Shown one piece after another: positions 1 to 39,890 of a stretch of DNA of 39,890 nucleotides (position 1 is the first letter of the stretch; every line of letters starts with the position of its first letter). A program made the position numbers and the translations under genes. The DNA comes from a virus (taxonomy: Duplodnaviria; Caudoviricetes). Where the stretch lies: positions 1 through 39,890 of IMG/VR virus record IMGVR_UViG_3300034418_010258. One strand, 5' to 3'. The notes under the pieces were generated by a model. That model made no database searches, was not told the origin of the DNA, and saw nothing but the letters and a program-made list of their open reading frames with translations.

Positions 1-129
1 CGCAAGTTGTTGATTCTCTTGCGAATCCGGCGGAACAAATCCTCCGATTCCGTCTTCGATCCGGATGCCCGTTTCGCCACTGCCGCTCTCTTCTTGTTCG
101 CCTTCGACGCGTAGGTGGTTTCCCCTTCA
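1..129. repeat. Terminal direct repeat, left copy (assembly circularisation overlap)
   Basis: 4-129 is identical to 39765-39890. Position 3 (C) differs from 39764 (T). Confidence 0.95.
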
Positions 130-5636: not shown

Positions 5637-8600
5637 TCACCCCTGCGGGAACAAATCTCCAGTCAGATCTTGTTCCTCTCCCTCGTCATCCGGAAGGACG
5701 ATTCCTCCCGCGACCTCTTCCCCTCCTTCTTTATAGTCGCCGGAATACGTGACCGTAGGAGTCCGGAATTCAGGTTCCTCACCGGGCCCGTCTGCATCGA
5801 TCGGAAACGCCATCGGGTCCGATTTCGCCTTCAGGTAGTTCTCATGCCCCCCGGCTGCATACATGTCGAACGCTTCGCTCCATAACTCATGAGGCATGTT
5901 GTTGCTGCCTTCGTGCCGCGCCTTTTCCATGAACAGCATCATCATCATTTTCTTGTTCCGGACGAAAACGTCGTCGATGACCATGTTCGGGTCGAATCCC
6001 CTGGGGATGTTATCCCATCCCTCGTTGCCGCCCCGCCACTTGTAGAGGGCATCCTTCAAGGTCATGCCTGTGTATTTAGACGCGAAGAGATCCATGTTCG
6101 CGGCTGCACCGTGAACCGGGGTCGGGAACAGTGCAATCTTGTGACCACCTCCAATGATGCCGTACCCCATCGTCGCGTAGAGGTTGTCGCGTTCCCGAGG
6201 GTATGCTGCCCCAGGGTTGTTGTATCGAACGTTTGCGTTGACCCCGTTCTTCGGGATGTCGTTCCTCACCGTATGCTGATCCTTCCTTACCTCTACGGTC
6301 TGCATGATCTTCATCAGGTTCTGCGGACCCTCATACCTGACCGGCTGACCGTAACCGAATCCACCTTGGCCGCCGGAGATGCGTCGTGCATTCATCACGC
6401 GTGATCCATAGAAGTCGTTCGGGTCTCCCATGTTCATCACCTTCCTCTTCACCGGTCCGCCCATCGTGTTCCGACCGATCATCTCTACGGCACCAGTGCG
6501 AGGGTCTACCGCAGTGACGATCTCCACATGCGTCTCCTCCCGTCCGTGAGTGGCGTTGTAAGTATCGCGGAAGAAAACCAGGTCACCGGGCTGGATCCCC
6601 TGTGGCGGGACGTATGCGCCGATCTCGTCCCTGTTGAGACCAGCGGCTGAGTCAGTCATCTTCCCGCTCATGTTGATGCCGGAATCCTTCATCACGTTGG
6701 AGATGAAGTCGGCGCACATAGCCGGAGTCCCCTTCTTGTAGTGCTGCCCCTCCCATTGCATTGCCGTTTGCAGCACTCCTCCTGCATGGATGCTGGGTGG
6801 TCCGAACTGCTTGATCGAGCCTGCATTGTTCGCCGGAATCACCCCGCTCTTCGCAGAGTAGCCTCCCACGATCGCCTGCCCGGTCGAGCGTAGACCCCCG
6901 GACGAATTATAGATCTCCTCAGTGCTAAATGTGGGAAGAGGTCTCATCGATGGCGACGGTGACGGTGCCGCTCCCTCCGCCGGTGGCAGTTCCTCCATTG
7001 TTGTGCCGGACCTCTTCAGGGCATCGTCGACGAGTTTCATGGTAGCGGCCAGGGCATCGTTGTCACCCTCCTCCGCCTGCTTTGCTGCTTTCTCCATGAG
7101 CGAAGCGGCGCCCTTCGGTTCTTCGGGTGCCTCTCCTGCCGGACCGTAGTATTTCATCCCTCCGGGTGCTGCCTTGTCCCCCAGGATTTCCTTCGCCTTT
7201 TCGCGACCTCGTTTCTGATCGATGCCTCCGGCGCCGCTTCCCATCGCGTCCATTGCTTCCTGCATGCTGCCATACTTGCCGCTCTCTACAGCTTGCTTGA
7301 ATTCCTCCTGTGCGTTGAGGTAGTCCTGATACTGGCGATTCTCACGGTTCCGGTCGATGACGTATGCCTCCTTGTCCTTCTCGTAGTCCTTTTTGTTCCG
7401 GACCTTTTGCTGGTCCTCCCATGCCAGGTCGACCTCGACCATCGTGCCTCCGGTCACGTTGTCGATGTCATCACCACCGAACCATGCTCCAACGAAGTCC
7501 CGGAATCCTCCAGGAAGAGTGATCAGGTTCTCCCCTGACTTCAATTCTTCCGGAGTCGCCGGCCGGACGAATTTGGGACGACCTGTCAGCGGATCGACAA
7601 TTTCCGTCATTTCGCCAACAGGCACCTTCCCTCCATCGGTGACGTAGTTTCCGAACATCCTTCGCTTGAACTCCGAATGGGCATCCGAGGCGTTGATCGC
7701 TTTCGCGTCTCCGTTCTCCTTCGCAAAGAGCATGGCGGAAAGGTCTTTGATCTCTTCGGCTGCCATGCCCGAGACTTTCATGCCCATCAGGATCCGGCGC
7801 TTACCCATCCCTGACTTGTCCGTCTTCGGATCCCATTCCGAAATCTGACTAAGAAACTTGGTTCGCCTCTTTGCTGATGCCTCCAGTCCTCCCGCCATCC
7901 GTTCATTCAGGATGCCCTGAAAATAGGAATCGATCTCCAACCCTTTTTCCTTGGCGAAAGAAATTGCAGCGGCCGGAGTTCGGATCTCCCCCTCCGCAAT
8001 AAGGCGGCCTGCTTCCTCGAGTGGTTTTTCGATCGATTGCAGATAGACGTTGTCGGCTGCCTCCAGCAGACTCTCACGCGCCCCTTCCGGAAGGTCGGGC
8101 CAATTCTTTGCGAATCCATCCGGACCAGGTTCACGCAGCATGCGGGAAACCTTCCGCGCCTGCCCGTCTTCGATCATTCCGCGGATGTCCCTTTGCGCCT
8201 GCCCTGCCTTGTAGGTCTTATTCAACTCGATCTCCAGAACCTTCTTATCGTTGTCGTCGAGAAACTGCGATGCCCGGATCTTTTGCAGACCTGCATCGAG
8301 GTCACCCTGCTCCGCGAAGATGAACGACTCTTCCTTGATCAGTTCGGTCTCCCGCTGGGTGAGGGCATCCTCAAACCCCTGCATTGCCTTGTCTCGTTCC
8401 TCATCGGAGAAAATGTTGTTCTTGTGGAGTCGATCGATGATCGAAATGCCGCCATTCACATTCAGTTCCTCCACAGCAGTCTGGAGGTCCAACTCTGACG
8501 CCTCCTTGGCCTGCTGGACATTCGATCTCGCTGCATCGATGGCGAGCGTTCCCCGCCCTTGAATGTATTTCGCCTCAATCGCGGAGCGGACGGCAAATTC

Positions 8601-9059
8601 GTTGTCCTTGCTGAATTGGATGTCACCGGTGACCAGACTCTCGTTGAAGTCCGACATGCGTCTGTCGAATTCCGGCACCCAGTTCTCCGGCGCCCCGGGG
8701 TTCTGCGCCCTCCATTCCTCGAACCCGTTCACGACCTGGGCATATCCCATCTTCACCTTGTGCTCATCGCGGATCTGTCGGGCCGCCATGTTCGCCTGCT
8801 TGAACTGCCCAAATCCCTGGAACATCGAGCCGACTGCGTTGGCAATAGACTGCAAACCTTTCGCCTTTGCGGTGTAGATTTCCTTCGGAATCAGGGGCAT
8901 TTGAGACTTGTCCCCGAGAACCTCCAACTGCTTCGCGACCTCCTGCATGGCGCGCTCCTCACCAGAGAAGTCCACTCGAGGCAAAGAGTTGTCTTCTGTG
9001 GGCATGCTGCCCCCTGTCGGAGCGGATGCTTCTGCTATATGCTGGGGAATGAATGCCAT
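5637..9059 (-). CDS. Internal virion/ejection protein with C-terminal NlpC/P60 peptidase and lysozyme-like domains
   Basis: 1140 aa with a helical N-terminal region. NlpC/P60 motifs: MCADFISNV, IQPGDLVFF, THVEIV. Lysozyme-like motif: RYNNPGA...FPTPVHGAAA...Y...TL...LYKW. Located between the tail genes and the giant protein. Confidence 0.75.
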   Translation of the reverse strand: MAFIPQHIAEASAPTGGSMPTEDNSLPRVDFSGEERAMQEVAKQLEVLGDKSQMPLIPKEIYTAKAKGLQSIANAVGSMFQGFGQFKQANMAARQIRDEHKVKMGYAQVVNGFEEWRAQNPGAPENWVPEFDRRMSDFNESLVTGDIQFSKDNEFAVRSAIEAKYIQGRGTLAIDAARSNVQQAKEASELDLQTAVEELNVNGGISIIDRLHKNNIFSDEERDKAMQGFEDALTQRETELIKEESFIFAEQGDLDAGLQKIRASQFLDDNDKKVLEIELNKTYKAGQAQRDIRGMIEDGQARKVSRMLREPGPDGFAKNWPDLPEGARESLLEAADNVYLQSIEKPLEEAGRLIAEGEIRTPAAAISFAKEKGLEIDSYFQGILNERMAGGLEASAKRRTKFLSQISEWDPKTDKSGMGKRRILMGMKVSGMAAEEIKDLSAMLFAKENGDAKAINASDAHSEFKRRMFGNYVTDGGKVPVGEMTEIVDPLTGRPKFVRPATPEELKSGENLITLPGGFRDFVGAWFGGDDIDNVTGGTMVEVDLAWEDQQKVRNKKDYEKDKEAYVIDRNRENRQYQDYLNAQEEFKQAVESGKYGSMQEAMDAMGSGAGGIDQKRGREKAKEILGDKAAPGGMKYYGPAGEAPEEPKGAASLMEKAAKQAEEGDNDALAATMKLVDDALKRSGTTMEELPPAEGAAPSPSPSMRPLPTFSTEEIYNSSGGLRSTGQAIVGGYSAKSGVIPANNAGSIKQFGPPSIHAGGVLQTAMQWEGQHYKKGTPAMCADFISNVMKDSGINMSGKMTDSAAGLNRDEIGAYVPPQGIQPGDLVFFRDTYNATHGREETHVEIVTAVDPRTGAVEMIGRNTMGGPVKRKVMNMGDPNDFYGSRVMNARRISGGQGGFGYGQPVRYEGPQNLMKIMQTVEVRKDQHTVRNDIPKNGVNANVRYNNPGAAYPRERDNLYATMGYGIIGGGHKIALFPTPVHGAAANMDLFASKYTGMTLKDALYKWRGGNEGWDNIPRGFDPNMVIDDVFVRNKKMMMMLFMEKARHEGSNNMPHELWSEAFDMYAAGGHENYLKAKSDPMAFPIDADGPGEEPEFRTPTVTYSGDYKEGGEEVAGGIVLPDDEGEEQDLTGDLFPQG

Positions 9060-9061
9060 GA

Positions 9062-9787
9062 CTACCCGTTGTTCTTGAATGGGGTGAAAATAGAGTCCGG
9101 GACTACCCCGTCAACACAAGCTCCGAACACATACGATTTCCCCTCCACGACCATCGGGATCTTCAACACCGTCCACTCCTTCGCCGGGTTGTCTGGTCCC
9201 TCTGGATAGAGAACCATCTGGTTCACCTTCTCTGTGAAAATCTGCCCGACTCGAGCCTCGACTACGTGCATGTCGTTGGCGACATACTTCGCCGAAACTT
9301 CACTTGGATACCTGCGAAGAATGTTGATGGGAGTCCAGAAGTTTGCGCGATTGATGTGAAAGATCGTCGAATAGGAGTCATTCAGGTACCAGTTGTTTTT
9401 GCCGACCTCATGCAACCATGCAGGGTAGGGCATCGAATTGAACACCAGTTCGATCAGTTGCTTTGCGTCCTGCGGTACGCTTGTCACCTCGTATCGTCGA
9501 AGCAGATCGCGGACCTCTGAATTCTCCTTTCGGAGATCCCGGTTCGCCTCATAGAGCATCTTCAATTCTTCGGCCTTTACTTTGCTCTCTGCCCGTAGTG
9601 AGTCCAGTTCCCGAGTGAATGCTGCCAGGTATTTCTCCTCCAGCGTTGCCGCGGAAACCTTTGCTGCGGTTTCCACATCGGCGCGGAAAACGTAGTGGTA
9701 GCCGAGCCAACTTGTGATCAAGCTGATTATAGCCAGGGCGACTGTAATCCCCGTCCCTTTGAGTCCTTTTTTTACCGTGTCGCTCAT
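9062..9787 (-). CDS. Single-TM, coiled-coil, PAS-like domain protein (candidate sensor or holin)
   Basis: TM segment GITVALAIISLITSWLGYHYVF, then a heptad-rich stretch. PAS pattern: FNSMPYPAWL...YLNDSYSTIF...YPSEVSAKYVANDMHVV...FTEKV...WTVLKIPM...VFG. Confidence 0.7.
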   Translation of the reverse strand: MSDTVKKGLKGTGITVALAIISLITSWLGYHYVFRADVETAAKVSAATLEEKYLAAFTRELDSLRAESKVKAEELKMLYEANRDLRKENSEVRDLLRRYEVTSVPQDAKQLIELVFNSMPYPAWLHEVGKNNWYLNDSYSTIFHINRANFWTPINILRRYPSEVSAKYVANDMHVVEARVGQIFTEKVNQMVLYPEGPDNPAKEWTVLKIPMVVEGKSYVFGACVDGVVPDSIFTPFKNNG

Positions 9788-9930
9788 GGTTGTGGAATTG
9801 CCCAGTTTACGTAGACGAATGTCCCGTCTGCTTTATCTCCCACTCCCTGCCCGATCATCACCCCATCTGGAGTGACAAGCGATGCGCAGGAATGCAGGAA
9901 CAGTGTGGAGGCTAGAAAAACGGTTCTCAT
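9784..9930 (-). CDS. Small lipoprotein, 48 aa (not in the ORF track)
   Basis: MRTVFLASTLFLHSCASLVTPDGVMIGQGVGDKADGTFVYVNWAIPQP*. Short signal peptide and lipobox-like LHSC. TAATG overlap upstream and ATGA overlap downstream fill the gap exactly. Confidence 0.75.
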   Translation of the reverse strand: MRTVFLASTLFLHSCASLVTPDGVMIGQGVGDKADGTFVYVNWAIPQP

Positions 9931-10799
9931 TAGTTGTACTGATAGACTGGCATCGTGTAGCCGGAAATGCCAACAGAAGTCGGTGCCACAGATGTCTGTG
10001 CGGCTGCCGATCCGGAAGGCATGAATCCCTGGAAGCTTGTCGTTGCCCCTCCTCCAGAGGCGCCTCCCATCACTCCGCTGATCATTCCGCCGATTCCGGA
10101 GATTGCGCCGGCGACGGCATTGGCTGCCACTCCGTCTGCTTCTGCCTCCATCAGTTGCCGGTTGACCATAGCCTGTCCGACATCGGAAGAGTATTGCGCC
10201 CGGATCCCTGACTTCTCGAGGTAGTTGGCGAATCCCTCAAGCTTTCGGGTCCGCCTGAACGACCTCCGATTTGCTTTCAGTTTGTAGTGACTCCACTTCA
10301 GAGCGTATTCCTGGTTGGCTACCTCACTGAGACCTGCGGCCCGATTATAGGTCATCTCATCGTAGAGGTCACCCATGGTCATCGTGAACTGCTCCGCGGA
10401 GTCTGCAATGACCTCCGCTCCGCTTAGTTCACCCACCGCACCGGACGCGCCGATCACCGCTCTCTGCGATCCCTGCATACGCTCGAACGCTTCCGAACTC
10501 CGATTGATGTTCTCACGGTCCTGCTTCGTTCGGTATTCGATTTCCTCCGAGAGTCGGCGAATATTCCTGCGCCGGCCCATGTTCTCCATTGCCTCGAATC
10601 CAAAATTGATTGCGGTCTCCAGGTAACCAATCCGTTGTGCTGTGCGTCTGGTCAACGCTCCGGCGATTCCGAAGTCACGCCGGGTTTCCGCGTTGTCCAT
10701 CTCCAACTCGAAATTGTCCTGGGCCGCCTCCTTCAAGGCTGCCGACTGACCGAGTCCTCCCGCGAGACCAACGAGTGCTGCTATGCCTGCAAAGATCAT
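9930..10799 (-). CDS. Internal virion protein (T7 gp14-like ejection protein)
   Basis: Probable start MIFAGIAALVGLAGGLG at 10799 (ATGA overlap with the nozzle gene stop). Ala/Gly-rich ends and a GSQRAVIGASG motif. Sits directly after tail tubular B. Confidence 0.65.
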   Translation of the reverse strand: MIFAGIAALVGLAGGLGQSAALKEAAQDNFELEMDNAETRRDFGIAGALTRRTAQRIGYLETAINFGFEAMENMGRRRNIRRLSEEIEYRTKQDRENINRSSEAFERMQGSQRAVIGASGAVGELSGAEVIADSAEQFTMTMGDLYDEMTYNRAAGLSEVANQEYALKWSHYKLKANRRSFRRTRKLEGFANYLEKSGIRAQYSSDVGQAMVNRQLMEAEADGVAANAVAGAISGIGGMISGVMGGASGGGATTSFQGFMPSGSAAAQTSVAPTSVGISGYTMPVYQYN

Positions 10800-13090
10800 T
10801 TTCCGTCTACCATGGTTTTGAGTGTGAATGCCGTGATTGAACACGGGAAGGGCGAATCTGTTTGGAATGTGGTATCAATCGACTGTCGGGAATCGGCGTT
10901 GATCTGAACGTCGTCGACCTGGCCGGTGAACCAGGGTTCGGTCTCCCCCATCAATGTATCATAATCTCGCAGAAGAAACTCGCTAAAAGTTCCCTCCGGG
11001 TGGTCCGACACCTTCAACCCGAGAGTTTTCCAGACGTTCACTGAGCATCGTTGAGTGAGAAACTTCCGGCCAAGTGAGGTGCCGGTTTCGCTCCCCAGTT
11101 CCGATCGTGTAGGCTGCATCGTGGAGGTGTAAGGGAGTCCCGCGACAACCCGGGTCGCCGGAGTCGTGAGAATAATCTGACCACCCGAGACCACCTGAGC
11201 GGGGATCTCCGCCCCGTCTGCCAGTCCGGTGACCGTCTTGCCCTCCAGGTGGCTGAACCCGGGAAAGGTAGTGGTAGGCGCCCCTCCGTCGACGGTGACC
11301 GCAGAATCCACGTAGACCACCGAGGTAGTCTCGTCGTCCTCCAGTTTCTCGAGCCATAGAGGATCCAGCCTCTCGAGGTAGTAGACGGTCGACCCGTTTA
11401 CCTCCCGCTCGACCACGACCCAGACAGAGTCCCCCAGGGCATTCTCACCGCTTGTGATCGCGACAGACCTGACCAGTCCATCGGTGACATGAGGTGACCA
11501 CCCGATCACGTTCTGTGACTGATCGATCGTCATTGCGATGAGTTTGCCATCGTTGGTCACGCACCACAGGATGGGGTCCGGCTGCACCTGAAACTGGTAT
11601 TCCTTCACTCCGTTCCGAACAAGGTGCTCTGCGAGTGCGGTCAGGTCGTCCGAGATCCCGCCCTGCTCCCCGCCATACTGAAACTGGCGCAGTTTCTTCT
11701 CCCCTCGCTCGAGCAGGACCACCGTGTCGGAAGCAATGATCGGAGTCTTCTGTGCCGTGCCGATCCTGGATTGTCGGCGGACGAAAATGTTCCGGGGCGT
11801 GACTGGAGTCTGCTCACTGGTCAGCAATGCCCATTCTTCCGACTGCGTGAAGATGAGGAGAGCGACATGCGACAGCATCGACTGGATCGGGGAAGAGTCG
11901 TCAGCCGATAGCGTGAAACCGATCGCGTCGTCGTCGTAGGCACCGTATCGAAACCACCGGAAGTCGTTCGTTCGGGATAACCAGGTCGTATTAGGTTGGG
12001 CATTTGTGCCTGCGAACACAAGGCGTTGCTCGTGAAACGTGCAGGCCCGGGGGTATCCGGTAGCCGGCGAGAAACTTCCCAGTCTGAATATGTCGGTCGC
12101 TCCGGTTCCAAAGATTGCCGTCTTTACCGTTGCGGTGCAGGTAGCACGATCGGTCATCGCAGTGATTTCCGCCCATCCTGTGTATTCGGAGTCTTCTACC
12201 TCCAGAACCGCGGACGGGTTCCCCTGGTGGGAGACCGTTGTATAGGACATCCGGATCTCACTTGGTTTCTCGCTTGTTGCTTTCCATGCGATGTTTCGCA
12301 GAGCGTCTGCCGGTGACTCGAACGACCGAATCGTGTCCCATCCCCCGTTGAGGTTCTTGACCTCCACATCCAGCGACCCCTCCCATGTTCCATACGTTGT
12401 CAGGGTGTAGTCTCCCACTACCGTGATGGAAGAGGAATCTGCTGTGGCATCGAGAGCAAGGGTCTCTGAGACTCTGGGGCGCCTGTGCGTCACCTCCACT
12501 GCCATTCCGATGTGATCGTTCAGGGTCTGCGAGTCGAGGAAAACATCGTCAGAAAAGGTGAGAGTAACACTGCCGGTGGTCCCTGATGCCGTGACCGTGA
12601 TGTCCGACTCGTTGCGTTGCCTCATCGGCGGCCAATCAAACACCGTCTCGACCATCGTCCATGAATCATTGCCCGACCCGTCGACCGTGAGAGTCAACTC
12701 GTAGGGTGGGTGATTTGGGTGGGTGAAGAATGCGATGTTGTTCAGTTGCTTCATCTGCACCTCGAACAGTTCGGTCTCCAGGTAGGGAGTCGTCAGGGAG
12801 ACGCCAGAAACCTTGGTCCCGTCGTCGTCCCAGACCTCCATCTTCAGTGCGGAGAGCTCAAGGACGAACTGCCTTGCTGCCGTCGGTCTGAATGCGATGA
12901 GTCGTGCGTTTCCTACCAGGGTGCCTTCGTAGAGCATGCCGGGCCGGCGTTGTGCTGTGCCGTAGATCCGCGGAAAGAAATTACGAAGTATGCGGCACCC
13001 AGTCGGGAACTTCGGCAGGTCTCCACGGGTATCGAGCAGAGGTGAGAATTCCCCGGCTGCACAGGAGTTTCTGAGAATGTGAAGAGCCAT
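10796..13090 (-). CDS. Tail tubular protein B / nozzle (T7 gp12-like)
   Basis: 764 aa. N-terminal AGEFSPLL...RNFFPRIYG..QRRPG and GYPRACTFHEQRLVFAG motifs. Confidence 0.85.
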   Translation of the reverse strand: MALHILRNSCAAGEFSPLLDTRGDLPKFPTGCRILRNFFPRIYGTAQRRPGMLYEGTLVGNARLIAFRPTAARQFVLELSALKMEVWDDDGTKVSGVSLTTPYLETELFEVQMKQLNNIAFFTHPNHPPYELTLTVDGSGNDSWTMVETVFDWPPMRQRNESDITVTASGTTGSVTLTFSDDVFLDSQTLNDHIGMAVEVTHRRPRVSETLALDATADSSSITVVGDYTLTTYGTWEGSLDVEVKNLNGGWDTIRSFESPADALRNIAWKATSEKPSEIRMSYTTVSHQGNPSAVLEVEDSEYTGWAEITAMTDRATCTATVKTAIFGTGATDIFRLGSFSPATGYPRACTFHEQRLVFAGTNAQPNTTWLSRTNDFRWFRYGAYDDDAIGFTLSADDSSPIQSMLSHVALLIFTQSEEWALLTSEQTPVTPRNIFVRRQSRIGTAQKTPIIASDTVVLLERGEKKLRQFQYGGEQGGISDDLTALAEHLVRNGVKEYQFQVQPDPILWCVTNDGKLIAMTIDQSQNVIGWSPHVTDGLVRSVAITSGENALGDSVWVVVEREVNGSTVYYLERLDPLWLEKLEDDETTSVVYVDSAVTVDGGAPTTTFPGFSHLEGKTVTGLADGAEIPAQVVSGGQIILTTPATRVVAGLPYTSTMQPTRSELGSETGTSLGRKFLTQRCSVNVWKTLGLKVSDHPEGTFSEFLLRDYDTLMGETEPWFTGQVDDVQINADSRQSIDTTFQTDSPFPCSITAFTLKTMVDGK

Positions 13091-23718: not shown

Positions 23719-23903
23719 AATTCAATTTTAATTCCGCTGGAGATACTGGCGCGGAGAATCTGGACCTGTTGCCAACCTTCATCGGCTCGCGTTTCCGCTT
23801 CCCGCAGATCCCGGCGGAGGTTCCCTGTTTCGATCGTAACAAGCGCGAGGGCGCAGCAGAGAGCAATAACCAGGGCGAAAAGGAATAGGGTGAGATGTTT
23901 CAT
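23715..23903 (-). CDS. Small membrane protein (TM plus short coiled coil)
   Basis: LTLFLFALVIALCCALALV hydrophobic helix. Confidence 0.6.
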   Translation of the reverse strand: MKHLTLFLFALVIALCCALALVTIETGNLRRDLREAETRADEGWQQVQILRASISSGIKIEL

Positions 23904-23921
23904 GTTGGTATAAATGGCTGA

Positions 23922-24305
23922 TTATGCCACTGGTGGCTGAAGAAGGCTGTTATCCCCTAAAGATTTTGCTTCCCGCTTCCATTCCTCACCCCAATTTCGG
24001 AGATCCATGTTTGACTGCCTCACGTTCTCCAATTCGTCCTTCGCACGGTCGATATACCATTCGGCGTAATCGGCAGCCTCTTTAAGTTCCTCCAATTCCA
24101 TGCGATCCCATCCCTTCAACCTGCTTTCAGCGTCTTTCAGCGCATCGAGGGCAGCATCTACCATCGGGCACGTTGGTTGCGGTTGCGCGACGATCCCAAA
24201 CCGCTCTTCGCTCGTCGCGGGGGATAACAAGGCGCCGGACTCAACGCCAGACCCTATTGAGTCGGACGCCTTACCCTGTTCAGTTTCTTCTAGTGTTTTC
24301 ATCAT
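23922..24305 (-). CDS. Hypothetical protein (cassette 1 gene)
   Basis: 127 aa; TCPMVD...LENVRQSNMDLRNWG. The start codon lies inside attC-like site 1. Confidence 0.7.
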   Translation of the reverse strand: MMKTLEETEQGKASDSIGSGVESGALLSPATSEERFGIVAQPQPTCPMVDAALDALKDAESRLKGWDRMELEELKEAADYAEWYIDRAKDELENVRQSNMDLRNWGEEWKREAKSLGDNSLLQPPVA

Positions 24306-24342
24306 TGGTTCCCGTCTGGCGTGAGTCAGCTAGTCGTTCTCC
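24222..24342 (+). repeat. attC-like site 1
   Basis: GGATAAC-AAGGC-GCCGGACTC(A)ACGCCAGAC ... GTCTGGCGTGAGTCAGC-TAGTC-GTTCTCC, with an unpaired A in the left arm. Confidence 0.75.
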
Positions 24343-24644
24343 CAAGAAATCTCGAACGGGCCGAAATGGTATCCGGTCCAATCGTTTAGCTTCCGATCCC
24401 ATATGTGGCACTTTCGCGGAACCCACTCCCAATATCTAGGATGCTGAAAAATTAAGATGATTCTGAGCTTCGGCAGGTTGATTGCCCAGGCGTTCCATTC
24501 GTCGTAAAACTCAGAGCGAAACAACAAGGGAGAACAAGGCGAAGCACCTAACCCCTCACCCTCTGGTGGGCAATGCCGACAGGGGAGATGCCTCCCGCAT
24601 TCGCAGATTAGATCTTCTGGTGGGTTTTCGGGGTAGGTGTTCAT
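24330..24644 (-). CDS. Hypothetical protein (cassette 2 gene)
   Basis: Probable start MNTYPENPP at 24644, inside site 2. The stop lies in the right arm of site 1. Trp-rich. Confidence 0.55.
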   Translation of the reverse strand: MNTYPENPPEDLICECGRHLPCRHCPPEGEGLGASPCSPLLFRSEFYDEWNAWAINLPKLRIILIFQHPRYWEWVPRKCHIWDRKLNDWTGYHFGPFEISWEND

Positions 24645-24656
24645 CGTTCGTTCTGT
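24529..24656 (+). repeat. attC-like site 2
   Basis: GGAGAAC-AAGGC-GAA(G)CACCT(A)ACCCC ... GGGGTAGGTGTTC-ATCGTTC-GTTCTGT, with two unpaired bases in the left arm. Confidence 0.75.
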
Positions 24657-24657
24657 C

Positions 24658-24996
24658 CTAAGATTTCCACCAATCGGCGTCATCTTCCTGACCGACAACG
24701 CAGACAATGCGCTTTTCCTCGGGAATCAGTTCGATGATGTCTTGCATGGATGGGGCATCCCGCTCGCCAAGAAACTCTTGGCAGATCCCATCGAAGTTCA
24801 TTCCAAATTCGTGTGTGAATACGGGACGACCAAGCGCCTTTTCCACAGCCTCGTGGAACACGCCAAAGGGGCAGCACAGTTCGGCGGTGAACAGTTGGAA
24901 CTTGGCGATCTGGCGATGGGTTTTACCCTCCCACCAGTTTGATTCTGAAAGCGCAATGGCTCGCTCTTTTCCGACACTCTGTTGATATTGGTTCAT
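24658..24996 (-). CDS. Hypothetical phage-type protein (cassette 3 gene)
   Basis: 112 aa; FQLFTAELCCPFGVFHEAVEKALGRPVFTHEF. Confidence 0.75.
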   Translation of the reverse strand: MNQYQQSVGKERAIALSESNWWEGKTHRQIAKFQLFTAELCCPFGVFHEAVEKALGRPVFTHEFGMNFDGICQEFLGERDAPSMQDIIELIPEEKRIVCVVGQEDDADWWKS

Positions 24997-25007
24997 GGTA
25001 ATTCGGG

Positions 25008-25133
25008 ACAGAACAAGGCGGCGCAGACCAACCGGCTACCCGTTCCGAGTTCAATTTTTAGTGGTTGTTTCAAGGTTGGTTGAGATTCGATGCCGTGCCC
25101 CCGGTAGCCGGTGGCTGGCCTGGATCGTTCTGT
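25008..25133 (+). repeat. attC-like site 3
   Basis: ACAGAAC-AAGGC-GGCGCAG(A)CCA(A)CCGGCTACC ... GGTAGCCGGTGGCTGGCC-TGGATC-GTTCTGT. Confidence 0.78.
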
Positions 25134-25468
25134 GGAAGAGACTCCTCGATCTTAGCCCACCACGAGACATCGTCCGGTAGGTACCCGAAGCTGAAATCAC
25201 CGGTTTCGGGATCGACGAAATCCAGCTTGTCTTCGTCCGCGTAGACGCTCACCATCGCGACGTGCGGACCTCCACGGCATTCGACGACCACGACGAGCAA
25301 ATCACCATCCCACCACCACGGCACCCCATCTCGCTTTCCTGCCGTTCCGCCTCCTCCTCTCGCCGGTCCAGCGTTCCAGACCAACGGCACAGAACAAGTC
25401 AGCGCACTCGAATCCTGCTCTCGTTGGGGTTGTTCGGTCGGTTTCTCAGTTGATAGGGTATTGCTCAT
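25070..25468 (-). CDS. Hypothetical protein (cassette 4 gene)
   Basis: 132 aa. The N-terminus reads through half-site 4 (ALTCSV) and the C-terminus reads into site 3 (PQND). Confidence 0.65.
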   Translation of the reverse strand: MSNTLSTEKPTEQPQREQDSSALTCSVPLVWNAGPARGGGGTAGKRDGVPWWWDGDLLVVVVECRGGPHVAMVSVYADEDKLDFVDPETGDFSFGYLPDDVSWWAKIEESLPQNDPGQPPATGGTASNLNQP

Positions 25469-25626
25469 GATTCCTTGGCGCGTTTTATCATCGCCTCAAT
25501 TCGGTCGCGCCCTAGTCGCTTCGCTTTCTCGACTGCGGACGTTTTCAGGCGAAACGGGAGCGGAATCCGTGGATCGTCCTCCGGTTTCCGCCCCGCTCCT
25601 TTGCGTTTTCCGCCCCGATTGCTCAT
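25465..25626 (-). CDS. Small basic DNA-binding protein, 53 aa (not in the ORF track)
   Basis: MSNRGGKRKGAGRKPEDDPRIPLPFRLKTSAVEKAKRLGRDRIEAMIKRAKES*. ATGA overlaps at both ends. Confidence 0.7.
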   Translation of the reverse strand: MSNRGGKRKGAGRKPEDDPRIPLPFRLKTSAVEKAKRLGRDRIEAMIKRAKES

Positions 25627-25846: not shown

Positions 25847-25881
25847 CAACAATCGAACAAAAGAGAGAGAACAAGCGGGTG

Positions 25882-26787
25882 TCATTTATCGTTCCCTGCT
25901 AAAATTTCCCATGCGAGTGCAGCTCTATTTGTGTCAATCCATTCTTGAAAGCAATCTCCAGGCGTATGCTGCACAGATTGGAACTTGTCCGTTTCCAATG
26001 GCTTTAAGTCGGTCCAAGTAATTGGAACCCCGTTCATCCACTCGAGAAAACAAGGGTTCAGAAAGAGTTTTCCAAGGGGTTCCCCTCGAAATGGGTTTCC
26101 GCTCCCTCCGAGTTCTTGAACTTGGCCGCGCCACTTCTCGGTCCCTGCGTTCGGAGTCGGAAAAAAAACCCCACATATCTGAGTTGCCAGATTCCACTGC
26201 CCCCGGGGATGGAGTCTCTCGACCTCTTTTTGTGTTGCTTTCATCGACGCTCCCATTGATTGATTCGCGAGCGGAGTAGCCAAGGATCCAGATTCGGTCG
26301 CGCTTGTGAGGTGCGGCAACGTGATGCGCTCCCAGCACACCCCATTTCGCATCATACCCCATCGCGGCAAGGTCACCGAGGACCACGGCAAGTCCTCTTC
26401 CCACAAGCAACGGTGAGTTTTCCACGAAGACGAATCTCGGTCGTATTTCACCGATAACTCTAGCCATTTCCCCCCAGAGTCCGGATCGCTCGCCTCCAAT
26501 ACCTGCGCCTTTCCCGGCTGCACTGATGTCTTGGCATGGGAATCCGCCGGCGACAATCTCGACATGCCCCCTCCAGGGTCGCCCGTCGAATGTTTGTATG
26601 TCATCCCAGATTGGGAAGAAGGGCAGGATCCCGTCTCGCTGCCGTTGCAGCAGGACTTTCCGTGGGTATTCCTCGATTTCACAAGCTCCGACAGGTAGGT
26701 GTCCAAGCAGAAGGTCTGCGAGGATTCCGCCTCCTGCTCCCGCGAAGAGGTGGAAACTTCGCAATCGTGTATCGTGGACCAACTCAT
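25882..26787 (-). CDS. Overlapping-frame methyltransferase beta chain carrying motif IX
   Basis: 301-aa ORF in another frame that overlaps almost all of the alpha gene and contains LNPCFLEWMNGVPITWT. The true start may be internal. Confidence 0.65.
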   Translation of the reverse strand: MSWSTIHDCEVSTSSREQEAESSQTFCLDTYLSELVKSRNTHGKSCCNGSETGSCPSSQSGMTYKHSTGDPGGGMSRLSPADSHAKTSVQPGKAQVLEASDPDSGGKWLELSVKYDRDSSSWKTHRCLWEEDLPWSSVTLPRWGMMRNGVCWERITLPHLTSATESGSLATPLANQSMGASMKATQKEVERLHPRGQWNLATQICGVFFPTPNAGTEKWRGQVQELGGSGNPFRGEPLGKLFLNPCFLEWMNGVPITWTDLKPLETDKFQSVQHTPGDCFQEWIDTNRAALAWEILAGNDK

Positions 26788-26791
26788 TCAT
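25934..26791 (-). CDS. C5 cytosine DNA methyltransferase, alpha chain (motifs I-VIII and X)
   Basis: LFAGAGGG (I), GGFPCQDIS (IV), FVENS (VI), HKRDRIWI (VIII), RLKAIGNGQVP (X). Confidence 0.9.
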   Translation of the reverse strand: MNELVHDTRLRSFHLFAGAGGGILADLLLGHLPVGACEIEEYPRKVLLQRQRDGILPFFPIWDDIQTFDGRPWRGHVEIVAGGFPCQDISAAGKGAGIGGERSGLWGEMARVIGEIRPRFVFVENSPLLVGRGLAVVLGDLAAMGYDAKWGVLGAHHVAAPHKRDRIWILGYSARESINGSVDESNTKRGRETPSPGAVESGNSDMWGFFSDSERRDREVARPSSRTRRERKPISRGTPWKTLSEPLFSRVDERGSNYLDRLKAIGNGQVPICAAYAWRLLSRMD

Positions 26792-28636: not shown

Positions 28637-29857
28637 CTACATCGCTGCATGAAATCCACTGTAGAGGTCGATTTCTCCGACCTTGTAGCTTGAGGGTTCG
28701 AGCGTCTGCTCCTGCGCCTCCATCATGTCCGCGGACCATTTCCCCCGCTTGTAGAGCGAAGCGAGTTTCTGGATCTCGGTGTTGTATTTGACGGTCTCCG
28801 CCTGGATCCAGTCGTCCGGCAGCCAGAAGATACGGGCAATGAACGGTGCCACTTTTTCCTGAGCAAGGAATCCCGCCCTCTTTTTGGGGAAGTCGTAGGC
28901 TGCCACTTCCGGGTGACCCTCCAGCCACTGCGAAATGCGGATGTAAGATGCCATCGAAAAGTCGTAACCGTTCATCTCGACCTGCTTCCCAAACGCAAGG
29001 GGATGTGCTGACAGGCATGTCTTCGGGTCGAGAATCGCATCTCCAGCCGGAAGGATGTCGAGCCTGCCCTTTGTCTGGACATGAAACTCCTTTCCTGACG
29101 ACCCAAACGAAGCAACAGCAAAGAGTCCCACCTCCTTGTGCTTCTTCTGAAGTTTCATCTCGCGAAGGTAGGTGCCGACCTCCGAGGATTCAGGGTGGTC
29201 GTGCATCGCATCCACCATGCGCCGAACGTGCTCCAACATCGCAGGCTTGACAATCAGCCGGCCGGCGGAAGTCTGTTCCTCCTTCCACTTGTCGTATTCA
29301 GTCTGCGGGAAGGTGTTCTCGATCTCCTCCTTCATCCGCTTCCGGGTCGCGGCCAGGATTTCTTCCTTCTCCTCATCAGTCTTCGGAAGGTTCCCGTGCT
29401 TTTTCTTGTAATCCTGAGCTTCCTTGCTGTTCCCTGAATACTTTTCCGGCAATCCCCCCTCCTTGCGCCTGAGGCGCCTCTCAGTGAGTTCCGAGAGTAT
29501 CTCTGGTGTAAGGACAGCGAATTCGTTGTTGAACTCGTCAGGAGTCAACAGGACGCAATGGTAGAGAGATCCGAAAATCAGCGCCTCAGTCTCTTCCCGG
29601 TAATCGATTCCGACAGGTAGGTCGATGTTGTTGTTCGTACACCACCTCGCGATTCGGTCGTTCGCGATTCGGGTGAAGTGTCCGCGGTTGCCGAACGAGG
29701 TGAATTCCTGCGACCCGTTCTTGATGTCAGATCCGCTGATCCCAGGTGCGACCCGATATTCTCGCATCGGTTGATTGATTCGCACCCCGTTGATGCCGGC
29801 ATCGGGATTCACCGGAAAGCAGTCCGAGAGAATTTCTCTGTAGGTTGGGATTTTCAT
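28637..29857 (-). CDS. PD-(D/E)XK exonuclease (RecE/ExoVIII-like)
   Basis: ISGSDIK, ALIFGSLYHCVLLTP, KGRLDIL...DPKT, GYDFSMASY and AQEKVAPF motifs; near erf. Confidence 0.8.
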   Translation of the reverse strand: MKIPTYREILSDCFPVNPDAGINGVRINQPMREYRVAPGISGSDIKNGSQEFTSFGNRGHFTRIANDRIARWCTNNNIDLPVGIDYREETEALIFGSLYHCVLLTPDEFNNEFAVLTPEILSELTERRLRRKEGGLPEKYSGNSKEAQDYKKKHGNLPKTDEEKEEILAATRKRMKEEIENTFPQTEYDKWKEEQTSAGRLIVKPAMLEHVRRMVDAMHDHPESSEVGTYLREMKLQKKHKEVGLFAVASFGSSGKEFHVQTKGRLDILPAGDAILDPKTCLSAHPLAFGKQVEMNGYDFSMASYIRISQWLEGHPEVAAYDFPKKRAGFLAQEKVAPFIARIFWLPDDWIQAETVKYNTEIQKLASLYKRGKWSADMMEAQEQTLEPSSYKVGEIDLYSGFHAAM

Positions 29858-30149: not shown

Positions 30150-30977
30150 TTAGATTTCTTCGTTGTTAATGGTTTCCATGATGGTGTTCCACTTCTCATC
30201 TCGCGTCATGTCATCCTGCCATGCCACTGGAAGCTTCCGCCAGTCGTTGAACTTCTTCTTTGTGAGAATGGAAATCGCTCCATTCAGTTGGGTCTCGGTG
30301 ATCCCGTTCGATGCCATGTTCACCTCCATCAGTTCCTCGTAGGTAGGTTCCGGACCCTGCGTCTGAGGTGCTGCGGGTTCCTCCTTCTTCCATGCTGCCC
30401 GACCTGGATCCACCGGAGGATCCTCGGTGCTGTTGCCGTCGTCGTCCTCATCAGTGGTTTCAATTCCCAGGGCATTCTGGAGGGCATAGCGTTTGCCGTA
30501 TGACATCGCAGACCCGAGTCCCTGCACCTTGTTCTTGAATCCACTGTCGTCGATGCAGACAGGCGCCAGTGCCTCCCAGGAATGTCCTGCCTCATGGGTG
30601 ATCGTGCAGATGACCCCGGTGATTCCACCGTTTGTCCCGAGCACAGAGGTGAACCGTTCGGTGAATCCACACTCGACCATCAGCGGCCGGATCTGCTTCA
30701 TCATGGCATCGAAACTGGTGTACCTGCTCACGGGCCGGCCGGACCGGTCGTGAATGATCGAGTTCTTCTGCAATTGAGGGCATGCTCTCTTGAACTTCTG
30801 GAGGGCCAGGGCAGCAAGGTGCTGCGCCTCCTTCGTCAGGATCCGCTCTTGCAGGTCGAGCATGCGTTCCAGTTTCTCCACATCTGCGTCCGGATCGCGG
30901 ACAATGCGTTCGATGGCATGCAGGGTGAGCTGCCCCTGCGTTGCCCCTTCGGGTGCTGTTGTTATTTCAGTCGTCAT
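30150..30977 (-). CDS. erf: ERF-family ssDNA annealing protein
   Basis: QGLGSAMSYGKRYALQNALGI...DEDDDGN signature. Confidence 0.9.
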   Translation of the reverse strand: MTTEITTAPEGATQGQLTLHAIERIVRDPDADVEKLERMLDLQERILTKEAQHLAALALQKFKRACPQLQKNSIIHDRSGRPVSRYTSFDAMMKQIRPLMVECGFTERFTSVLGTNGGITGVICTITHEAGHSWEALAPVCIDDSGFKNKVQGLGSAMSYGKRYALQNALGIETTDEDDDGNSTEDPPVDPGRAAWKKEEPAAPQTQGPEPTYEELMEVNMASNGITETQLNGAISILTKKKFNDWRKLPVAWQDDMTRDEKWNTIMETINNEEI

Positions 30978-37600: not shown

Positions 37601-39890
37601 GCGAATATTGCGGACGATTTCCCCACGGAGTTTCGGTGACCGCTGAAACGGTGACAGCATCTGGTCGACCCGTGCCTGCGCCTCCGCGTAGTCCTTCGGC
37701 ATACGGAGGGCGGAGTATGACGCCCCACTCGCTAGAGTTGCGAGGGCGGCGTCTCTTCCTGCTTTGTCGAGTCCAAGTACTCGAAGCCCACTCTCATCAA
37801 GTCCCCCAATGGACCTTCCGAGTCGATCAGATTTTCTGGGTAGTAGTCTTCCACCTGTTCCAGCATCCCCTCCAGGATCGGAATCGAATGCTCCACCTGT
37901 GTCGTCGCGAAGATTCCCATCAGCAGTTCTTGCTGCTGCTTTCCTAGCTTTTGCAATCGCTCTTGCGGCCACGCCTGATTGAGCATGCTCTGAAGTGCGT
38001 CGTCTTGTAGTTGCCCCGTCATGCTCCATTACTACCACAGGTGGGAGTCCGTGTCTACTCTCTTCCCATCCCTGTGACTCCCACACTTTCCGGCGCTTTT
38101 TGTCCTCCTCGAGTAGTTCCTTATCTGTCCGGGTATCCCCTTCATCCCGGTAGAGGGGATCATAGGGAAACGTCTGCGTGACCTTCCACCCATGGTTGCC
38201 GTATAGCGTTGGGAGAATGCCGTCCGGCATGCGGTCATTCGAGACTGCGAATGCGTCCAGAACATTTGCTCCCTCGCTTAGTGCTTTCGCCATGATCAGG
38301 TTCAGCATGCCCTTCGTCGCGACATTGGAGGTAACTCCAACCAATTCCCTGCGCCCGGTATCAGTCACCTTGCGTGTCTTCTCATCGTATTCGCCAATCT
38401 TGATCGCAAAATAAACGTCGTCATCCCCCAGTCGAAACACCTTCATGTGACCGTCCCGCGCCCATTTGCCGACCTCCTTCGGGTCGTAGTGGGTAAGCGT
38501 GTCGCCTGCCTCGTTCTGACGTATTGCTCTTGTGAATTCCACCACTCCCTGCTGCTTCGAGGTATCGATCACCTTCCAGTTGTCCATCACCGCATTGAAC
38601 ATTGCCTGCGCCTCCGCTCTGGAAATGGGAATGTTCTGCGCATTGTTCACCGTGTCGACCACATCCTGCTCCAGCAATGGGGCGCGGATCCCAGTGGAAA
38701 GCGTTCGGCCCAGTAGGTAATCGGGGCGTGAGGTTGGCTTTTTCTTTGCCATGTCCTCCAGCATTCGACCACCTACCAGGTCCAGCGGAATGGGTCTCCG
38801 CAAATGACTCACTAGTTTCCCGGGTATGACATGGGAGTAGGACAGATGTTCCTGCACTCCGAATGCAGCCGCAGACAGGTCGGGCTTTTCGACGTTCTTA
38901 TTTTTCCCGAAATATGCGTCGAGCGCATCGTAGTCGACCTCAATCAGTGAGATGATAGATGACGTTTCGAGACCCTCGAACGACTGGTCTCTGGCTTGAT
39001 TTAGGATCCTCTTGATCGGTATCACGCCAATCTCCTCGGCCGCGGCTGAGTTCATTGTCTTGATGACGAAAGCTCTCTCATCGAATGACAGGGAGGAAAT
39101 GTATGACTCAAATTTTGAGGCGGAAAACTTCTTTGGGAAACGAGTGAGTTTCTCCGTTCCTGCCTTTGTTGACCCCGCTTTTTTACGGATCAATTCAGAC
39201 AGGTTTGCTTCCTGTTCAAGTGATAGCGCCCCGTCCCTGATAGCCTCCTCGATCGCGTTGAAAACAATTCTCTGGAATGTCACGTTCGACTTGTGCGCCT
39301 CTTGCGCCATCGAATATGGAGCAATCAATGCGCGGCGCCGCCCCTCTTCGTCGGTCCAGTATGCCTTCGTTTTCGTCAGACTTTGATAAATCGAGCGGAC
39401 CCCAACCTCTTTTGATGCCCATGCTGCGGTATCCTTGTCAGGGTCGTTCGGATCAAAATGCAGCAGAGGGTATGCTGGGCCGCCCTGGACATCCACCCCG
39501 AACAGTTTTCCACCACCCGAGAGCAGGTCTGCCATGATGGGAAGGAACGGTTTCCCTACATATTCCTCTGGAATTGTGCCGGGGATTCCCTTCTGGTCTG
39601 CCAGGGTGTTGGCAGGGACAAGCATCACCGAGTGCGTTCTCATCGAGTGGTAGACGCCTTCATGAGTCGTCTTCAACCCCTTCCCTGCGTCCCAGATCCA
39701 GTGATGAATCACATGCGCGGCGACCTCTTCGGGGATTTTTGAGCCTCCCTCTGCCGTCTTGCGTAAGTTGTTGATTCTCTTGCGAATCCGGCGGAACAAA
39801 TCCTCCGATTCCGTCTTCGATCCGGATGCCCGTTTCGCCACTGCCGCTCTCTTCTTGTTCGCCTTCGACGCGTAGGTGGTTTCCCCTTCA
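34664..39890 (-). CDS. Giant polyvalent virion/ejection protein, C-terminal part (end of HhH-GPD-like domain, GNAT domain, long helical C-terminus)
   Basis: The 1725-aa track ORF stays open to the window end and joins 1..5615 through the terminal overlap. GNAT-like segment: ELVGVTSN...GANVLDAFAV...GILPTLYGNHGW...PYDP...PPVVVME. Confidence 0.9.
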   Translation of the reverse strand, partial: EGETTYASKANKKRAAVAKRASGSKTESEDLFRRIRKRINNLRKTAEGGSKIPEEVAAHVIHHWIWDAGKGLKTTHEGVYHSMRTHSVMLVPANTLADQKGIPGTIPEEYVGKPFLPIMADLLSGGGKLFGVDVQGGPAYPLLHFDPNDPDKDTAAWASKEVGVRSIYQSLTKTKAYWTDEEGRRRALIAPYSMAQEAHKSNVTFQRIVFNAIEEAIRDGALSLEQEANLSELIRKKAGSTKAGTEKLTRFPKKFSASKFESYISSLSFDERAFVIKTMNSAAAEEIGVIPIKRILNQARDQSFEGLETSSIISLIEVDYDALDAYFGKNKNVEKPDLSAAAFGVQEHLSYSHVIPGKLVSHLRRPIPLDLVGGRMLEDMAKKKPTSRPDYLLGRTLSTGIRAPLLEQDVVDTVNNAQNIPISRAEAQAMFNAVMDNWKVIDTSKQQGVVEFTRAIRQNEAGDTLTHYDPKEVGKWARDGHMKVFRLGDDDVYFAIKIGEYDEKTRKVTDTGRRELVGVTSNVATKGMLNLIMAKALSEGANVLDAFAVSNDRMPDGILPTLYGNHGWKVTQTFPYDPLYRDEGDTRTDKELLEEDKKRRKVWESQGWEESRHGLPPVVVMEHDGATTRRRTSEHAQSGVAARAIAKARKAAARTADGNLRDDTGGAFDSDPGGDAGTGGRLLPRKSDRLGRSIGGLDESGLRVLGLDKAGRDAALATLASGASYSALRMPKDYAEAQARVDQMLSPFQRSPKLRGEIVRNIRERAQEQLEKWVDIVEQQGLIEESRKEEIRLRAKKTVEDFVEEEEKAGRTVTDEERKKMLSEARKEAQIYYRQEAKDVTTLDREQLRAALRTIEAITMQAPPEVRGKLLRGSNRIASLKTPAAMLQEIERRVAKLDQELEYFLWKEAEETRKNLFRKIKRGDDRSAGKKRKGTLTAEFYELFEAADQAMAWDRAKGEIEAEKLQLEAETMESEDVSKMTPDQLEEHHNKIAKLELTAEMYRGFAGWMELDSILRFHAVDTLEELRVGAWEMRKQNEAKRREFLEEKRNEAWSDAKASGNVAALQNALNEAKKHRKGAQGLLTWDQLFDYWFGSESETYTYWTDRLRHAENLRHDLDQETGNLVQGLMQQIGGSKRNGMKVDWDLNQDIIETKEGNFTPMQSVDILLTWRQEDGRRHMMGPLDEEGNPRKGGREYWHYDQKFVDDLKRQLTEKAPAAIKVYKFLRKQYRKEWERINPLYREIYGVNLPKNIFYAPLKVQGVSETNRDQMDPTTGLTKSGTVTPNSLRSRGHAIARPTFVNALQKFSGHKRQINHFLAFAEFNRDAQAILGERSIQNGLTEKFGVESVNNLNFFLRFYRENGNTMAGAELGFNTDWLGKATSNFAQMAIVGRIGTIALQSSQLTAARAEMSAADYYSRIVKLFSGDLEMGWKEAWNSDYIQRRLEEMPPIVRQALQHNNVYDVPAWLDSAGLGDMARGFRRGTGNDLKYAVGNLGRTIAGADALFTAGTFAIIYDQRLSAAKAKGMPNPEKHALNEAERITDKVAQPTRPGARSSVELAFSANPLGALVFNFGSEARKNIGLMLVAAVTKDATRLGRSVAYAVILQGIMSAVIRNVWREARDSDDESYFDAQNQWARRFMLDAMTEWLYGVPIFGEEIQSMIYSLAGEYKYDSTPLSSIGRGATRIPRLLTGESIEDGTALRDLEGLIEGMGIFSDSAAASASFMHLFRDLSRLGENILTD
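39762..39890. repeat. Terminal direct repeat, right copy
   Basis: Same sequence as 1-129 with one mismatch. The repeat lies inside a continuous reading frame. Confidence 0.95.

Follow-up and report, generated by a model that had tools for sequence, protein, structure and literature searches.

Backward gene cassettes and probably translated attC sites in an integrase-less, integron-type array of a phage operon

Layout of the locus and anatomy of its attC sites

The window, i.e. the whole stretch of DNA that was analysed, is a phage record of 39,890 bases that is rated 100% complete. Bases 1-129 recur with one mismatch at 39762-39890 (4-129 and 39765-39890 are exactly identical), and because of this 129-base terminal repeat the record is taken to be a circular assembly of ∼39,761 bases. 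All of its genes are on the − strand, and they encode terminase, head-tail connector, capsid and tail proteins, a DnaC-like loader and a cytosine methyltransferase. An array of attC sites and small genes is flanked by the methyltransferase on one side and by the small terminase gene on the other. BLAST against cultured phages gave only a weak 61-nt match, and an alignment query of viral contigs gave no confirmed locus. The features of the array, and two recombination genes further along the genome, are as follows:

23922-23957, + strand: left insertion point with a G/TT crossover at 23949-23951; attI-like or secondary site
23922-24305, − strand: gene 1 (127 aa); leader supplied by S1, body conserved, tail derived from the neighbour
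23950-24336, + strand: cassette 1, with end complementarity; missing from a relative in which cassettes 1-3 are replaced
24222-24342, + strand: attC site S1; AAC at 24226-24228, GTT at 24336-24338; 46 bits
24330-24644, − strand: gene 2 (104 aa); its 39-aa leader is the whole bottom strand of S2
24337-24650, + strand: cassette 2 (314 bp), the unit whose mobility is best documented
24529-24656, + strand: attC site S2; AAC at 24533-24535, crossover GTT at 24650-24652; 46 bits
24651-25127, + strand: cassette 3; assembles separately as 24649-25130
24658-24996, − strand: gene 3 (112 aa); DUF7736 (PF24875, E 1.6e-12), wholly within cassette 3
24993-25073, − strand: putative relay ORF of S3, 26 codons; its TTG overlaps the gene 4 stop and its stop overlaps the gene 3 ATG
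25008-25133, + strand: attC site S3; AAC at 25012-25014, GTT at 25127-25129; 69 bits; encodes the gene 4 tail
25070-25468, − strand: gene 4 (132 aa); leader found on three other bodies, body found under other leaders and with other tails
25389-25468, + strand: half-site S4, left arm and loop only; 8.3 bits
25805-25885, − strand: putative relay ORF of S5 (MTPACS...), 26 codons; ATGA overlaps at both ends
25866-25897, + strand: collapsed site S5, in which only a short remnant separates the AAC box from the GTT box
28637-29857, − strand: exonuclease VIII-like gene (Pfam/PHROG)
30150-30977, − strand: Erf-like annealing protein (Pfam/PHROG)

Sites S1-S3 carry the core triplets and hairpin of attC sites, and their lengths of 121-128 nt fall within the attC range (∼55-141 nt). 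A covariance model trained on 23 chromosomal sites, mostly from Verrucomicrobiota, matched S1-S3 on the + strand only, and the next best match anywhere in the 39,890 bases scored 11 bits; the motif used to collect the training sites came from phage sites, which makes this test partly circular. Among the 23 chromosomal sites, the stem is kept by two-sided changes in 8 of 16 pairs. Unconstrained stem alignment placed left/right bulges at 1/0 in S1, 1/2 in S2 and 3/0 in S3, and in the bottom-strand fold of S2 the extrahelical bases are on the left arm, in line with the one-arm bulges of attC sites. The first bases of each cassette find their longest complement in that cassette's own downstream AAC box (9, 8, 9 and 8 nt, the top value of each row), which is the core-box complementarity of a gene cassette. 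The strict RYYYAAC/GTTRRRY consensus is not matched, the R' boxes being GTTCTCC/GTTCTGT; chromosomal sites from IntI-bearing Verrucomicrobiota also depart from GTTRRRY (consensus GTTCGnC). An Rfam scan returned no relevant match and one chance snoRNA match. Folding energies of the whole sites were within the range of shuffles (z −0.5 to −1.6, not significant), so the case for attC is carried by the motif, the structure model and the natural variants described below. For S4, a right arm was searched for and none was found; the left arm of S5 is similar to that of an intact site in viral contig L290.

The strand of the sites is anchored by a reference chromosomal integron, in which intI on the − strand is directly followed by an attI-like TACTG/TT, a sense first cassette and the same site type on the + strand. 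Because of this anchor, and because the model matches on + only, the top strand of the sites is + and the four genes run backward. This bears out a preliminary description of the DNA, which had placed the attC top strand on + and the four genes on −, as in the whole phage, opposite to the usual integron layout. The ATGs that it had located within sites, at 24305 and 24644, lie in S1 and S2, and a third, at 25468, lies in the S4 remnant; the termini that it had listed (N-terminal GALLSP, ASPCSP and ALTCSV, C-terminal LGDNS, WEND-stop, PQND and AGNDK-stop) all stand in the translations. At the level of sequence, the observation of backward genes partly encoded by attC sites is thus confirmed, and it holds for genes 1, 2 and 4, while gene 3 starts and stops inside its own cassette.

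No match to tyrosine recombinases (PF00589) was found in the complete phage genome, and tblastn searches of it with IntI queries gave nothing better than E 0.2. Three full attC sites on one strand within 0.9 kb, with intI absent, constitute a CALIN as defined in PMC4889954. The absence of intI from the phage genome sets the locus apart from complete integrons, and the placement of four genes on the attC bottom strand, three of them passing through sites, sets it apart from the canonical cassette orientation. Judged by these features, it is a real CALIN that would work like an integron array, neither a complete integron nor canonically oriented. On its bottom strand, the left insertion point encodes the gene 1 tail (NSLLQPPVA-stop), and it contains a 9-nt complement to the AAC box of S1.

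Three further observations concern the surroundings of the array. A promoter-like TTGACG, 17 nt, TAATCT (25846-25818, − strand), seen by eye and not called by a consensus sigma-70 scan, points at the array from within the S5 relay ORF. The cytosine methyltransferase DNA holds two long ORFs in different frames (25882-26787 and 25934-26791, − strand), both with methyltransferase PHROGs, which we take to resemble split alpha/beta methyltransferases. Residues 1095-1159 of a very large virion-region protein (3-5615, − strand) have a weak, sub-cut-off match to PF18760 (ADP-ribosyltransferase, polyvalent proteins).

Mosaic proteins and exchange of cassettes at G/TT

No function for genes 1, 2 and 4 emerged from Pfam, PHROG or the protein atlas (the best atlas score, 0.88, is a lead only), and gene 1 has no Pfam or PHROG family. 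Their homologues are mosaics. In the six homologues of gene 1, which like those of gene 4 were compared as proteins only, the body is common to all and the leader is present in 5/6, and the tails after xGDN/xGEN differ. The gene 2 leader, followed through 12 homologues, occurs on six unrelated bodies (P0010-P0014 and P0020), and five more homologues match only its first 25 residues. The gene 2 body is found under another leader in P0009, P0022 and P0023, and that leader also stands on the gene 1 body (P0006). At the DNA level, in L008-L010 and run X7, the leader occupies the same hairpin, with a switch of body at the AAC box. For one body, the tails, NAKADTRRP-stop in L010 and NVKGESPLTESEV-stop at an L011 site, are exactly what the arm of the adjacent site encodes in the Asn frame. 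The alignment of homologues proposed in the preliminary description therefore came out as it had anticipated, with bodies common between the xCS/LLS and xN positions and with variable leaders and tails. Its further proposal, that the sites supply start, stop and a neighbour-dependent tail, is supported by these alignments for the tail and has to be amended for the leader, which belongs to the cassette's own attC. Since start and leader travel with this attC, only the tail and the hand-off from the upstream gene depend on the neighbour.

Compared with L008, the S2 leader has 13 synonymous and 1 non-synonymous changes over 25 codons, and 18 and 4 over 39, a substitution pattern that points to translation. 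In L011-L013, the S2 leader and the right-hand box are fused in frame to another gene and the left arm is missing; this site is likely fixed and domesticated. Homologues of gene 3 adjoin backward attC sites in L003, and no sites were detected around the one in L002. The latter (near 4300) is 64% identical, and a short stretch at its 3' end looks, by eye only, like a remnant right arm. In the L003:4490-4660 region, a backward cassette has its ATG in a GTTATG box and its stop in the TAA of a TAAC box; read from its sequence, this cassette is the mirror image of a classical cassette and a second way of using the sites.

Natural variants break at the G/TT of R', as expected of the attC crossover, and whole cassettes are missing, relocated or exchanged in relatives, with exact G/TT borders. 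Cassette 2 is identical over 24334-24652 (319 nt) in L007, where it has other neighbours on both sides and the breaks fall at TCG/TT and G/TT. It is present as 24336-24653 in a contig from another study (run X7), next to a further neighbour. A joint that omits exactly its 314 bases was found in runs X1, X2 and X4, i.e. in three runs of two studies (X1 and X2 are one sample, with sides of 23-24 nt; X4, from another study, has a side of 47 nt). Because cassette 2 is 100% identical between different contexts, its movement is recent. Contigs of two other studies match 23850-23951, continue with 1266 foreign bases and rejoin at 25124; since they diverge at 23951 and rejoin at 25124, cassettes 1-3 have been replaced between two G/TT points. 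The piece of cassette 3 (24649-25130) has ∼2.5 times the flanking depth and a different left neighbour in runs X2 and X3, and the S4 segment 25391-25468 sits on a different body in a 37-kb contig. A joint at 24579-25514 was set aside as a likely repeat match, its side being 22 nt, and run X9 contributed nothing to these comparisons. The attC accompanies the gene whose start lies in it, as cassette 2 does with S2, which is what ordinary bottom-strand recombination predicts (PMC5027507).

Gene shuffling between similar repeats by the phage's own homologous recombination, with no integrase active today, is an unlikely source of these variants. The phage does carry both the Erf-like and the exonuclease VIII-like gene and no integrase, and such recombination could account for leader swaps at the conserved left arm; against this, the breaks fall on G/TT with only ∼3-7 bases common to old and new neighbours, the left border at 23949, which is also broken there, is not a repeat, and chromosomal sites of this type have retained compensated stems.

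Cassette orientation and frame register in phages and bacterial genomes

Related sites were collected by a left-arm motif search, which covered 120 of ∼180 viral loci and 148 bacterial-genome loci from 8 of the 64 collection parts; the multi-site arrays among the latter were from Verrucomicrobiota. A hairpin filter, which let through 0 false sites when applied to 184 kb of shuffled DNA, and the exclusion of duplicates left 100 sites from phages and 74 from genomes, and these gave bounded cassettes of at least 150 nt, 79 from phages (two window cassettes and earlier loci included) and 48 from genomes. Cassette starts were picked by complementarity of at least 7 nt, so end complementarity in this survey is no evidence. 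A codon-score classifier was dropped, as it was biased against AT-rich chromosomal cassettes and left 52/74 unscored, and the top-ranked strand and the stop-free cover were used instead. Among the 79 phage cassettes, the ORF with the highest score ran antisense in 64 and sense in 11, and 4 cassettes had none; among the 48 genome cassettes, it ran sense in 30 and antisense in 8, and 10 had none. By stop-free cover, 36 phage cassettes were antisense and 3 sense, with 40 ties (n = 79), and 35 genome cassettes were sense and 1 antisense, with 12 ties (n = 48). An in-frame bottom-strand ATG inside the cassette's own site was present in 57/79 phage versus 3/48 genome cassettes (shuffled bodies gave a mean of 4.9 and a maximum of 13, against the 57 observed for phages), and any bottom-strand ATG in the site in 73/79 phage versus 17/48 chromosomal cassettes. 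When PHROG was used as a judge of ORF strand, 5/45 candidates had any match, one of them strong, and all five were antisense; few cargo genes match any family. Three contigs of the genome collection (L204, L206 and L216) contain backward, leader-bearing cassettes, and they may be phage or prophage DNA within bacterial assemblies.

The register of the crossover was followed in 57 sites from 37 loci, which share ancestry and are not independent. The crossover AAC is an in-frame Asn in 50/50 read-through ORFs, and 7 ORFs end before the box. The Asn frame has a stop inside its own site in 57/57, so that no fusion with the next gene arises, and this stop is at most 8 nt from the next ATG in 51/57 sites, with 28 exact 4-nt overlaps; in the other two frames, a stop within 8 nt of the ATG occurs in 4/57 and 8/57. 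Entry from leader to body uses all three frames (25, 20 and 12 of 57). As judged from these sequences, the main regularity is a fixed crossover frame that places a stop on or beside the next start.

In the window, this register appears as a chain. The methyltransferase beta ORF ends with NDK-stop in S5 and leads into a 26-codon ORF, the putative relay, which ends on the next ATG. At 25468, the stop of the upstream gene overlaps the ATG of gene 4, the gene 4 tail ends on the TTG that opens the other putative 26-codon relay, and this relay ends on the ATG of gene 3. In S2, the Asn frame reads NER-stop, with the stop overlapping the gene 2 ATG; it is used in L007, and gene 3 stops 13 nt earlier. 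Gene 3 is an exception to the pattern, as is S1, where 24 nt separate the gene 2 stop (ND-stop) from the gene 1 start. We infer termination and re-initiation between the cassette genes, as described for ORF-11 and for short ORFs in attC sites (PMC8876359).

It is improbable that the array is a relic, captured once, in which the apparent leaders and tails are untranslated DNA that happens to be open to reading and the true starts lie inside the bodies. S4 and S5 have decayed, as a relic would, and the S2 leader also occurs without the left arm (L011-L013), so that its conservation at the protein level may predate the site. The complete identity of cassette 2 between contexts speaks for recent movement, however, the stop-start register in 51/57 sites is unexpected for neutral DNA, and bottom-strand ATGs occur in 17/48 chromosomal versus 73/79 phage sites.

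Integrase source, proposed mechanism and relation to known systems

A tyrosine recombinase is encoded in 7/37 viral records with such sites (2/8 among the near-complete ones), and because of this low fraction an integrase activity in trans is assumed. Among five of these recombinases that were tested, IntI scored above the cut-off in G014 and G027, and the G037 protein, with 180 bits, was below it; IntI was above the curated cut-off in 5/5 Verrucomicrobiota genomes tested. In G014, G027 and G037, intI is located at the attI end of a backward array, on the same strand as the cassette genes, and in G014 and G027 the last cassette gene continues across an attI-like site to a stop codon at the start of intI. 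The G037 array (L290:11310-17905, L291:400-700) has ∼16 consecutive backward cassettes followed by a divergent IntI-like gene, in a genome with an HK97-type portal and capsid. G027 (L289:2722-4444 and 7542-10980) has two backward arrays on opposite strands, with an NNHYTQ tail on one gene of each; this common tail suggests two copies of the attI-like site.

A search for viral integrases was evaluated for the best 80 of 535 confirmed stretches, of which 8 had no frame that a script could recognise and 18 were duplicates. The 54 distinct integrases comprised 7 with backward coupled upstream sites, 8 called sense, 8 unclear cases and 31 without a detected upstream site. In a quick tree, 12 viral integrases cluster (SH-aLRT 99) apart from five host ones. 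Ten members of this clade were inspected, and AACAGTGATTATCC or a one-base variant stands just before intI in 7, with a looser version in 3, mostly behind co-directional genes; two loci of the clade that had been labelled sense also had co-directional genes and the attI-like motif on inspection. The antisense label changes 5 times on the quick tree and 48/500 shuffles were equally good, so a single origin of backward arrays is not supported by this tree. Another unusual layout was seen in L292:4680-8000 (KX853513) and 11 viral loci, where IntI-like genes have sense attC-like sites downstream; nine of the 11 sit in one part of the tree. The left border of the window's array is re-used by relatives and shares only AACAG with the attI-like motif of the phage IntI clade, and for this reason the phage likely relies on the IntI of its host or of a co-infecting phage. 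From the site type alone, the host is likely a Verrucomicrobiota bacterium.

With a probability of about 80%, we read the locus as an integrase-less, integron-type array in a phage operon, on which IntI likely acts in trans and whose sites likely serve as translated adaptors. IntI would recombine the folded bottom strand as in any integron, and because it does so a cassette would carry its own attC and hence its own start and leader. The upstream gene would pass the crossover with AAC as Asn, take a short tail from the right arm of the next cassette, and stop on or beside that cassette's start, so that ribosomes could re-initiate. Since all cassettes use one frame, any order would work, with no promoters or ribosome-binding sites of their own. 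The backward layout would let the one-way transcription of the phage, from the replication genes to terminase, read the array. It would also favour excision if genes are co-oriented with replication, as recombination is more frequent for bottom strands that lie on the lagging-strand template (PMC5371416). Leaders would reach new bodies through less common exchanges at the AAC (R'') box, for which top-strand recombination is the most likely route.

The opposite assignment, in which a mirror-specific integrase recombines the other strand, so that the genes are ordinarily oriented and a site moves with the gene upstream of it, is very improbable: the AAC box is where leader swaps break, the symmetric complementarity of the cassette ends fits both models, and top-strand recombination occurs at some sites (PMC5027507), but two independent contexts have cassette 2 together with S2 and the leader, the gene 1 leader is kept in most homologues while tails vary, and the attI-like site of phage integrons is on the side expected for ordinary strand choice. 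Within the reading as an integron-type array with bottom-strand recombination, we tentatively consider that Verrucomicrobiota phages have an integron branch of their own, with an IntI clade and attI, frame-locked attC adaptors and a two-way cycle that creates cassettes, although we regard this as somewhat less probable than its contrary. In this cycle, the bottom strand would shuffle cassettes and the top strand would graft an attC with its leader onto a new gene.

Clusters of attC sites in phages have been published, and phage sites were shown to recombine with IntI1 (PMC9892861, Qi et al. 2023). The array resembles those phage CALINs in having at least two attC sites, no intI and methyltransferases in the cargo. 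In the main text of that paper, however, the layouts are typical, the integrons host-derived and the phages temperate, and backward genes, leaders, tails or a frame register do not appear; its example TJE1 is sense-oriented at the one strong site that we detected, and its supplements (17 CALINs) may contain examples of backward phage cassettes, for which we found no published case. The sedentary chromosomal integrons of Verrucomicrobiota share the site type, length, bulge side, G/TT crossover and end complementarity; they differ in carrying top-strand genes that for the most part stop ahead of or within the AAC box, in having an intI directed away from these cassette genes, and in the rarity of an in-frame bottom-strand start (the 3/48 above). 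In ORF-11 of attI1 and short ORFs of attC sites, a frame likewise spans the crossover and couples translation of the next cassette (PMC8876359). As described there, those ORFs are on the top strand and concern the first cassette or single sites, whereas in the phage array it is the bottom strand of the entire site that is read, as part of a cargo protein and in one frame across many unrelated cassettes. The left border, CTG/TT, fits the GWT/TGWT targets of attG insertion (bioRxiv 10.1101/2022.09.11.507474), and by analogy such secondary-site insertion offers a possible route to seed an array without attI. The attG insertions described are in bacterial chromosomes; the phage border is instead re-used by relatives and supplies a protein tail. 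In one survey pipeline (PMC7370490), ORFs are tied to sites by strand and those that overlap by more than 50 nt are dropped, and as described these rules mean that at least this pipeline would discard backward genes. The full-text literature searched, with subscription journals largely outside it, contained no backward phage cassettes, attC-encoded leaders or crossover frame rule.

Integrons are known as bacterial devices in which genes stay oriented towards the Pc promoter through strand selectivity. The phage would use such sites with its genes flipped, and each recombination site would double as coding sequence in a standard frame. Frame-locked sites of this kind would be a natural plug-and-play design for polycistronic translation, and many uncultured phages have mosaic accessory regions and odd protein ends that such sites could explain. 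How cassettes are created was called unknown in PMC4889954. With one attC on many unrelated phage genes, joined at the AAC box, cassette creation becomes a testable question, and the two-way cycle, if true, would be a visible and testable route by which cassettes are created from ordinary phage genes.
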